Of a stretch of 64,000 nucleotides of DNA, positions 52,230-53,062 are shown piece after piece. The notes beneath the pieces were generated by a model. The model searched no databases and was not told the DNA's origin. It worked only from the letters and a program-made list of their open reading frames with translations. The first letter of the stretch is position 1, and each line of letters starts with the position of its first letter. The stretch lies in the sequence record MK327935.1; one strand, written 5' to 3'. The DNA is from Escherichia phage vB_EcoM_G2494. Both the position numbers and the translations under genes were made by a program.

Positions 52230-52565
52230 TTATCCTTTCTTAAACAAATTGCGAAGCCAGTATACAAACGGGATTTCTTTAAACTTGAACTTGTCAATAG
52301 TTAATTCTTTAGTAGCAAGATGAATATCATAAGCATCATGTGTAACTATATGCCATTTTCTATAGTCCAAATGTGAACAACCGTCTGGATCTAGGTTAAT
52401 AAGAGTTTCTCGCTCACTAGGATTATTTTTCCACAATTTTGTAATAGGATCGCACATAATTCGACCTAGCGTACCATGAATAATCTCACAACGGTAAAGT
52501 TTTCCAGCAGTGAGATAGGCGCACCCGTCATAGTCGGTATAAACAAACACTTCTTTAACACTCAT
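52230..52565 (-). CDS. hypothetical protein, paralog family D
   Basis: 111 aa; two copies of D-G-C-[AS]-[YH]-L motif shared with next two ORFs. Confidence 0.45.
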   Translation of the reverse strand: MSVKEVFVYTDYDGCAYLTAGKLYRCEIIHGTLGRIMCDPITKLWKNNPSERETLINLDPDGCSHLDYRKWHIVTHDAYDIHLATKELTIDKFKFKEIPFVYWLRNLFKKG

Positions 52566-52596
52566 TTTAATACTCCTTTGTTGTTTCGATGGGGGT

Positions 52597-52625
52597 ATAT
52601 TACTACCCCCGTTTCATGCTGTCAA
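52597..52625 (-). promoter_or_regulatory. sigma70-type early promoter with dyad symmetry (PeSL-like)
   Basis: TTGACA - 17 nt - TAATAT; inverted repeat GGGGGTA/TACCCCC around -10. Confidence 0.45.
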
Positions 52626-52886
52626 CTACTTTTTCAAGAATTTTTTTAGCACATTCCAAAGACCTTTATTCTCAGGTTGTTTTGGTTCTTCGATCAGTGT
52701 CCAGGTTCGACCGTCTAAGTGTGCACAATTTTTAAGACAAATAAAAATCTGGTGTCCCTTATCATCACGGATATAACCACTATTCGCAAATCTTTCATGT
52801 GGTGTATATTCATACAGTGTATTTGGTGTAATATACTTGCGGTTACTATAAGGTGTCATCACATACATCATGGTACTAACTCCCAT
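52626..52886 (-). CDS. hypothetical protein, paralog family D
   Basis: 86 aa; NCAHLDGRTW motif. Confidence 0.45.
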   Translation of the reverse strand: MGVSTMMYVMTPYSNRKYITPNTLYEYTPHERFANSGYIRDDKGHQIFICLKNCAHLDGRTWTLIEEPKQPENKGLWNVLKKFLKK

Positions 52887-53062
52887 TTATCACCGCGAAG
52901 ATGAGAACATCCACCATCAAGAAGGATCGTAATACGATAACCTATATCATCTTTGATGTAACCGATTGTCGGTGGATTTTCGTAGTCTCGTGTCGGGGTA
53001 AAATCATACATCTTTCCTGGCGTAATATCTTGTCCTTTATTGCTATTGGTATAAACTTTCAT
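52868..53062 (-). CDS. hypothetical protein, paralog family D
   Basis: 64 aa; GCSHLRGDKW motif. Confidence 0.45.
   Translation of the reverse strand: MKVYTNSNKGQDITPGKMYDFTPTRDYENPPTIGYIKDDIGYRITILLDGGCSHLRGDKWELVP

Follow-up and report, generated by a model that had tools for sequence, protein, structure and literature searches.

The 64,000-nucleotide stretch of Escherichia phage vB_EcoM_G2494 analysed here, hereafter the window [GenBank: MK327935.1], contains three small adjacent genes directly upstream of regB, which we call C, B and A in their order of transcription. Sequence comparisons indicate that the three are paralogs, old and diverged, within a single family of small phage proteins. 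Their shared domain is predicted to be an SH3-like barrel, and its conserved Cys-x-His (C-x-H) motif is probably a family signature and not a zinc site. The proteins may be accessory binding modules that are made early in infection. For this explanation as a whole we put the probability at roughly 55%.

The 2 kb or so around the three genes is 97–98% identical to the genomes of Krischvirus (RB49, JSE, Phi1 and about 55 others), which identifies the window as a segment of a Krischvirus genome, that is, of an RB49/JSE-like, T4-type coliphage. All genes in the window are on the minus strand and about 94% of it is coding. Transcription runs from nrdC.11 through C, B and A to regB and then to vs.1, vs, tk.4 and tk. 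The ATG of B overlaps the TGA of C (ATGA), because of which the two genes are probably translationally coupled, and regB starts 4 nt past the stop codon of A. The open reading frame (ORF) listed for B runs to 52886, but the shorter start at 52871 is likelier because the orthologs P0002–P0004 are 81 residues long. The only annotation that A, B and C have in JSE and the other records is "hypothetical protein".

How closely are the three proteins related? B and C share 40% identity over 63 residues (z 18.6 against 2000 shuffles) and A and C share 33% over 67 residues (z 5.9), while A against B alone is marginal (z 3.6). A profile hidden Markov model (HMM) was built from C and 92 distant relatives, 93 members in all, with A and B excluded. 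It recognises each of the three as a single domain, B at 4.1e-24, C at 6.6e-23 and A at 7.2e-15, and finds no fourth copy in the 64-kb window. In the PHROG collection, phrog_6261 is matched by A (1.1e-37, residues 3–76 against profile positions 1–73), C (1.1e-27) and B (6e-6), and phrog_15978 by B (6.5e-59) and C (1.4e-8). An earlier note on this DNA, made from the letters alone, had proposed that these genes and two further pairs of small genes in the window (D/E and F/G, described below) are paralogs, and had named pairwise alignment and structure prediction as checks. All three sets are present where it had placed them, score above chance and prove wider than was claimed; the alignments extend beyond short motifs for B–C, A–C, D–E and F–G. 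The neighbour that it had named as regB is indeed regB, as the Pfam match of the ortholog shows (Table 1).

The note had drawn the three genes together through a motif, D-G-C-[AS]-[YH]-L-[DR], thought to occur twice in A. The homology stands, but the literal pattern fits only the second of the two sites in A; the corresponding residues are N-C-A-H-L-D in B and G-G-C-S-H-L-R in C. That A seems to contain the motif twice is a chance resemblance of two distinct conserved elements within a single domain. The first, D-G-C-A-Y-L-T-A-G-K, is A's version of the N-terminal element G-C-x-Y-[IL]-T-[AP]-G-K of the family, the Cys of which has been lost in B and C. Since A has a single HMM domain and its N-terminal G-C-x-Y-L-T belongs to this separate, family-wide element, an internal motif duplication was rejected. 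Of the looser pattern C-[AS]-[HY]-L the 129 ORF products of the window contain four instances, all within A, B or C, where 0.19 are expected from shuffles.

The family to which A, B and C belong is phrog_6261 together with phrog_15978, which has no assigned function and no Pfam model; 90 of the 93 relatives match phrog_6261. That profile, of 73 positions, has the same domain length as the A/B/C family and matches A, B and C directly, and its entry carries no annotation, fold or function. The analysis adds to this entry a signature, the prediction of an SH3-like fold, the extent of the family and the finding that it has expanded upstream of regB. An exhaustive profile search covering 1.84 billion representatives (threshold E≤1e-3) found 382 cluster representatives, most of them stand-alone proteins of 58–75 residues. 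In a few the domain is present two or three times in tandem (P0051, P0053, P0059 and P0149), and some bear unrelated C-terminal extensions. A word-indexed search returned chiefly Krischvirus orthologs. Members in cultured phages include those of Klebsiella phage VLCpiM12a (Jedunavirus) and of a group of Vibrio phages of about 133–141 kb, and 11 IMG/VR loci contain a member, usually as a single copy.

Across 173 domain instances the signature reads T-[AP]-G-K-x-Y, followed by I-x-D-D-x-G, C-[AS]-H-[LI] and W-x-V-V. The frequencies in the first element are 0.90 for T, 0.80 for G, 0.92 for K and 1.00 for Y; in the second they are 0.86 for D and 0.84 for G, and C, H and W stand at 0.90, 0.82 and 0.97. 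The N-terminal G-C-x-Y is optional, its Cys being present in 35% of the domains. With 382 clusters and near-invariant K, Y, C, H and W, the family is a target for structural, pull-down and deletion work.

Is the family known under another name? Pfam gave no model at E≤1 beyond noise for any of ten small proteins of the window, and none at threshold for ten long multi-domain relatives. Searches of PDB sequences with four family profiles of the window's small proteins returned nothing meaningful. DUF6501 (PF20111) is likewise a short domain (67 positions), and 8 of the 93 relatives match it weakly at E≤0.1, with a best E of 0.0017. However, the best relative, a tandem protein, scores 23.1 bits against a gathering cutoff of 23.8, no member reaches that cutoff, and A, B and C have no match at E≤1. 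DUF6501 is itself uncharacterised, and literature searches on it and on Krischvirus escape or defence returned nothing about the A/B/C genes. A six-frame scan of T4 from 57.0 to 67.5 kb (tk to nudE) with the family HMM found no member, and the positional counterparts in T4 (vs.3, vs.4, vs.5 and others) were rejected as homologues on that result.

The fold was predicted for C with AlphaFold2 from a 10-sequence alignment. The model has a mean predicted local distance difference test score (pLDDT) of 89 and is a five-stranded SH3-like barrel, in which a strand at residues 2–4 is followed by a long loop, a short strand at 19–23, strands at 33–37 and 43–47, a 3-10 helix and a last strand at 61–63. 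The D-D-x-G element is at the hairpin that joins strands 3 and 4 (33–37 and 43–47), and C-[AS]-H-[LI] is at the 3-10 helix, S53-H54-L55, which precedes the last strand. The model thus shows what characterises an SH3-like fold, namely a five-stranded barrel, an RT-type loop, a distal hairpin and, ahead of the last strand, a 3-10 helix, and the A/B/C domain is accordingly predicted to be an SH3-like barrel. Foldseek against BFVD returned many phage proteins of 60–65 residues at template modelling (TM) scores of 0.7–0.8, and the fold matches include SH3-like barrels such as KOW and the retroviral integrase C-terminal domain.

Canonical SH3 domains, which bind proline-rich peptides, have an ALYDY motif, a WW dipeptide and a P-x-x-Y in the 3-10 helix that forms the PxxP groove. 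These motifs are absent from A, B and C and from the family consensus, and among the relatives one member matches Pfam SH3, at E 0.066, and no other does. Gp54 of phage Bas11 (PDB 9AXB) is a small beta-barrel that triggers the defence protein CapRel(SJ46) and is non-essential with no assigned function (PMC11578894). Unlike the A/B/C domain it is six-stranded, the sixth strand standing where SH3 has the 3-10 helix, so that it lacks the C-x-H helix. With 6% identity and no match to the family profile even at E≤10, neither sequence homology nor a six-stranded barrel connects A, B and C with Gp54, and membership in its family was rejected.

Does the conserved Cys-His pair bind metal, as the earlier note had implied? 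Zinc fingers and zinc ribbons have four conserved Cys/His ligands, usually in two CxxC or CxxH knuckles. The alignment of the 173 domains has Cys or His consistently in only two columns, the C (90%) and the H (82%) of the C-x-H motif; no other column exceeds 35% and there is no conserved third or fourth ligand position. About 13% of the domains have Phe, Tyr or Trp instead of the His and 8% have Ser instead of the Cys, and a natural alternative allele of A reads G-C-V-F-I. A zinc site is unsupported because there are two such columns only and because of these natural replacements, and a zinc finger or ribbon, for lack of four conserved ligands, was rejected. The substitution pattern suits packing or groove residues better than obligate ligands. 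The ligand groove of canonical SH3 domains has the 3-10 helix and the end of the RT loop along its sides, and by analogy the conserved T, K and Y may form one binding surface with C, H and W.

Metal binding is the first alternative to be considered. The Cys and His would chelate zinc either within one domain, with extra ligands, or between two domains that contribute two Cys and two His at the interface of a homo- or hetero-dimer; in the latter form, paralogs and tandem fusions alike would be oligomers held together by zinc. The strength of conservation at C-x-H spacing is in its favour, as is a third Cys, that of the N-terminal element, in 35% of domains, A among them, with the combination C...C-x-H in 43 of 173. 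Fusions of two or three domains and the apparent translational coupling of C and B would fit proteins that work as oligomers. But besides having only two conserved ligand positions, which are naturally replaced even in an allele of A, the family lacks CxxC and HxxH knuckles and matches no zinc-finger model of Pfam, and the domain of C reaches a confident fold when no metal is included in the prediction. We consider metal binding unlikely.

The array C-B-A is found before regB in 58/58 cultured Krischvirus genomes. It is also present in the relatives L005–L008 from a Hadza gut metagenome, as proteins of 64, 81 and 103 residues followed by regB. In L009, a more distant T4-like contig, two copies of the domain follow RlaP (nrdC.11), and in another metagenomic T4-like contig (L010, 2644–4360) five adjacent genes between the nrdC.11 homologue and regB contain six domain copies, including one two-domain fusion. 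Because copy number differs in this way between the Krischvirus array, L009 and L010, the locus is read as a lineage-specific expansion site. Domains have also been exchanged within it. The flanks in L005 are 92–94% identical to the window, yet the domain-coding part of A (about 52292–52525 in the window, 3035–3247 in L005) has no detectable DNA similarity, while the first 40 or so nucleotides of the gene and its tail-coding 3' end are conserved. The replaced domain is about 40% identical as protein and has Ser for the first Cys and Phe for the His. The A gene of L005 thus contains an intragenic cassette replacement. The metagenomic protein P0005 is a natural chimera of the N-terminal half of C and the C-terminal half and tail of B.

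For the hyperplastic regions of RB49 and phi1 it has been described that ORFans are gained, lost and replaced (Arbiol et al. 2010, PMC2839356). Those phages belong to the same genus and the regions are of the same type, and both there and here indels or cassette swaps are found at short intergenic repeats. That paper does not describe the A/B/C paralog families, and the words "paralog" and "regB" do not occur in it. Expansion, cassette swaps and natural chimeras make the locus a compact, datable example of how accessory proteins are generated in hyperplastic regions. Two further differences in gene content were seen in the window when it was compared with JSE. At 53783–53868, between nrdC.11 and vs.6, it lacks a homing-endonuclease gene that is present in JSE and L005, and at 46388–46448, between N (46097–46387) and J, it lacks a 777-nt ORF of JSE that is annotated as tail fiber or host specificity; a promoter-plus-hairpin site is at this second junction.

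A and B, in addition to the domain, have basic amphipathic C-terminal tails. Hydrophobic moments (muH) of 0.66 for the B tail and 0.63 for the A tail rank them 5th and 7th of 129 C-termini, and both exceed the 95th percentile of background windows; C has no such tail. The tails are kept in the L005 and L009 orthologs, and they may tether A and B to a membrane or a partner. The highest moment of the 129 C-termini, 0.73, belongs to the last 14 residues, SSWFTRLNNWLRKL (44716–44760), of G, one of the small proteins outside the array. This tail agrees at 9 of 12 positions with GSWIKRLNSWLRKEF, the helix that targets E. coli FtsA to the membrane, both being at the extreme C-terminus; AlphaFold2 places a helix at residues 72–83 of G, and orthologs keep the pattern. 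A basic amphipathic helix at the extreme C-terminus, as in FtsA, is thus predicted in G and, more loosely, in A and B. Recent capture of host DNA was rejected as its origin, with 23/36 nt identical and different synonymous codons used; the G tail may have arisen by mimicry or by convergence on targeting to the inner membrane.

A bolder version of these ideas takes the C-x-H barrel to be a phage-wide interaction module that forms homo- or hetero-oligomers, possibly with a metal between the C-x-H helices of two domains, and that T4-like phages have multiplied upstream of regB into an arsenal of three to six diversified copies, some of them anchored in the inner membrane by their amphipathic tails, for use against host factors. 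We regard this as doubtful. If it were true, host targets such as defence sensors, envelope proteins or division proteins would be neutralised or hijacked, and the FtsA-like helix of G would point to deliberate targeting of the divisome and membrane interface.

When would the genes be expressed? C and B follow nrdC.11 without a promoter-like spacer. The spacer between B and A contains, in this order, an AT-rich stretch with a stop codon, TTGACA and TAATAT, a hairpin over the -10 (-15.1 kcal/mol, z -2.2), the Shine-Dalgarno (SD) sequence AAGGAG and the ATG. A core of about 45 nt is shared with copies near 60475, 39301 and 40211 (about 60453–60528, 39279–39354 and 40189–40264, all on the minus strand) and reads TTGACA..ATGAAACGGGGGTAGTAA.ATACCCCC in the four copies, two of which have a compensatory GGGAG/CTCCC variant of the stem. 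In RB49 and phi1 the elements called PeSL are early promoters, terminators and recombination sites (PMC2839356). Such an element is defined as a sigma-70 consensus promoter between genes that is combined with a polyG/polyC stem-loop, is preceded by an AT-rich stretch with a stop and followed by an SD and start, and is repeated in hyperplastic regions (PMC2839356). By this definition the spacer between B and A is a predicted PeSL. A and regB would then have an early promoter of the PeSL type in front of them, and C, B and A would belong to a hyperplastic region that is transcribed early. Other promoter-plus-hairpin sites, at 44111–44139 and 46418–46445, bracket the cluster of genes from I to N.

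The SD sequences of C (53066–53075), B (52880–52886) and A (52572–52580) contain GGAG, the cleavage motif of RegB in T4, and that of regB, AAAGGAT, does not. The early mRNAs of A, B and C could be RegB substrates because of these GGAG motifs. Might the proteins themselves then bind nucleic acid, as small barrels of the Sm, KOW or integrase C-terminal type that act with RegB or on early mRNAs? Their position directly upstream of regB is kept in Krischvirus, L005 and L010, two such nucleic-acid-binding barrels are among the fold matches, and Lys, Tyr, His and Trp are conserved. But the typical domain is acidic, with a median net charge of -4, a median isoelectric point of 4.7 and 79% of domains net negative. 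Moreover, the family occurs outside the regB context, in Jedunavirus, Vibrio phages and diverse viral contigs, and T4 has regB and yet no member in the interval that was scanned. A nucleic-acid-binding role therefore seems to us quite improbable.

A miniature enzyme or a module for covalent chemistry at a Cys-His dyad, such as a thiol transferase or a hydrolase and possibly active as an oligomer, would account for the strong conservation of Cys, His, Lys, Tyr and Asp within some 60 residues. However, the domain is very small and its predicted fold is that of an SH3-like adaptor, natural members have Ser and Phe or Tyr in place of the catalytic candidates, and there is no similarity to enzyme families in Pfam or PDB. 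The chances of this are slim.

The evolutionary rates of the three genes set them apart from their surroundings. In pairwise comparison with JSE the ratio of nonsynonymous to synonymous substitution rates (dN/dS) is 0.59 for C, 0.19 for B and 0.51 for A, and in comparison with L005 it is 0.30, 0.15 and 0.47; for six neighbouring genes it is 0–0.11. A, B and C thus appear to evolve several-fold faster than their neighbours, as fast-evolving accessory genes. That they are decaying or functionless duplicates, junk ORFs of a hyperplastic region, is an idea to which we give next to no credence: it could call on these raised ratios, on truncated or frameshifted metagenomic variants (P0013, P0016) and on the wealth of non-essential ORFans in such regions (PMC2839356), but the ratios are still below 1, all three genes are intact in every one of the 58 cultured Krischvirus genomes and each has a good SD, and the signature residues are kept across the 382 clusters.

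The explanation that we prefer remains that of diverged SH3-like paralogs. The Cys and His would be residues of the fold or of a binding groove rather than parts of a zinc cluster, and the proteins, as small modules, would bind a macromolecule of host or phage in the early phase of infection, in the service of host take-over or counter-defence. The paralogs may have diversified in target or localisation, with C soluble and the C-terminal helices of A and B serving as tethers to the inner membrane or a partner. Several points weigh against this. A binding function is suggested by the fold and the evolutionary pattern only, and the domain has no characterised homologues. Cys and His are put in a groove by analogy with SH3 and not on the basis of model coordinates, and it is unusual for a closely spaced pair with a purely structural part to be conserved as strongly as this one (90% and 82%), which leaves room for a chemical role. 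The dN/dS values come from two pairwise comparisons of short genes. Finally, the array is lineage-specific, since the family is single-copy in most other phages, and need not reflect function. None of this overturns a current idea; paralogous ORFans are to be expected in the hyperplastic regions of T4-type phages. A, B and C are nevertheless unannotated in about 60 coliphage genomes of the therapeutic type, and their assignment to a family offers a handle on phage dark matter. The features discussed here and below are listed in Table 1.

Table 1. Positions in the window of the genes, motifs and predicted expression signals discussed in the text.
Feature	Position	Strand	Description
nrdC.11	53084–53782	minus	RlaP-type nucleotidyltransferase; upstream neighbour of C
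C, 64 aa	52868–53062	minus	minimal stand-alone domain copy; C-S-H-L at 52898–52909; SD GGAGA
B, 81 aa	52626–52871	minus	domain (C-A-H-L at 52716–52727) and basic amphipathic C-terminal tail GLWNVLKKFLKK
PeSL-type cassette (predicted)	52566–52625	minus	B-A spacer; sigma-70 promoter, stem-loop and SD
-35 TTGACA	52620–52625	minus	B-A spacer
-10 TAATAT	52597–52602	minus	17-nt spacing to TTGACA
G5/C5 (GGGGG/CCCCC) stem-loop	52591–52610	minus	overlaps the -10
A, 111 aa	52230–52565	minus	one domain, about residues 3–76 (52338–52559), with an insertion; linker; basic amphipathic tail
A N-terminal motif D-G-C-A-Y-L-T-A-G-K	52512–52523 (C-A-Y-L)	minus	
A C-S-H-L	52368–52379	minus	
A tail EIPFVYWLRNLFKKG	52233–52277	minus	basic amphipathic
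regB, 140 aa	51803–52225	minus	PF10715 REGB_T4 on ortholog
J, 73 aa	46449–46670 (listed ORF to 46724)	minus	third member of F/G family; phrog_7345 at 1e-33
E, 72 aa	45660–45878 (listed ORF to 45905)	minus	stand-alone copy of the D C-terminal domain
D, 144 aa	45215–45649	minus	N-terminal domain (about 1–78) weakly I/H-like; C-terminal domain (about 79–144) shared with E
H, 82 aa	44970–45218	minus	possible distant relative of I and the D N-terminal domain
G, 85 aa	44716–44973	minus	predicted SH3-like barrel, residues 1–65, and C-terminal amphipathic helix
F, 112–113 aa	44378–44719	minus	paralog of G over the N-terminal 60–70 residues; phrog_7345 at 0.0096
I, 87 aa	44149–44412	minus	weak links to G and the D N-terminal domain

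The two other sets of paralogs that the earlier note had pointed out are real as well. D and E are 58% identical over 65 residues (z 39.8), and D matches phrog_16117 and phrog_10407. E is flanked by a 27-bp direct repeat, ACAGAAGAGTGAGGAATATAGAATGAA, at 45645–45671 and 45874–45900. As the repeat contains a stop, an SD and the next start, the true start of E is probably at 45878, and the orthologs P0197 and P0200 have 72 residues. JSE has one copy of the repeat and lacks E, which is full-length in 12 of the 65 matching phage records. Unannotated relatives of the D/E domain are present in Salmonella phage 9NA and Aeromonas phage Avpd1.

F and G are 32–33% identical over about 60 residues (z 8.4), with a marginal profile-profile match (hhalign E 3e-3), and J adds a third member (G–J z 9.1, hhalign E 4e-6). 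H and I score z 5.4, with no significant hhalign match; I against the D N-terminal domain and G against I reach z 4.2 and z 3.7, and their hhalign E values, 5e-3 and 6e-3, are marginal. Only G–J is solid among the hhalign links of the small proteins other than A, B and C, and the relationships between H, I, G and the D N-terminal domain are tentative. A single superfamily of all the small proteins was rejected, as the A/B/C profile gave no significant hhalign match to G, J, F, H, I or either half of D. The SH3-like fold predicted for both C and G is a fold-level observation only. D/E and F/G/J are taken as independent products of the same local process of duplication and shuffling. In metagenomes, P0044 is a natural chimera of the N-terminal part of J and the C-terminus of H, which implies a deletion of about 1.5 kb, and P0039 is H with an internal deletion. 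G is hypervariable among Krischvirus genomes that are otherwise 95–98% identical; its protein identity is at least 80% in 5/58 records and below 60% in 40/58.

Local duplication is frequent in the window, as had been claimed, for an all-against-all blastp of the 129 ORFs revealed further families at 31136–33713 and 38091–41022. One has seven genes on the minus strand (31402–31878, 31880–32704, 32717–33196, 33186–33713, 38091–39269, 39326–39910 and 39907–40179), with no Pfam match and with identities of 27–36% (blastp E 1e-4 to 1e-11). Two of its members have internal repeats. The other is a pair of glutaredoxin-family paralogs, at 31136–31405 and 40741–41022, that are 33% identical.

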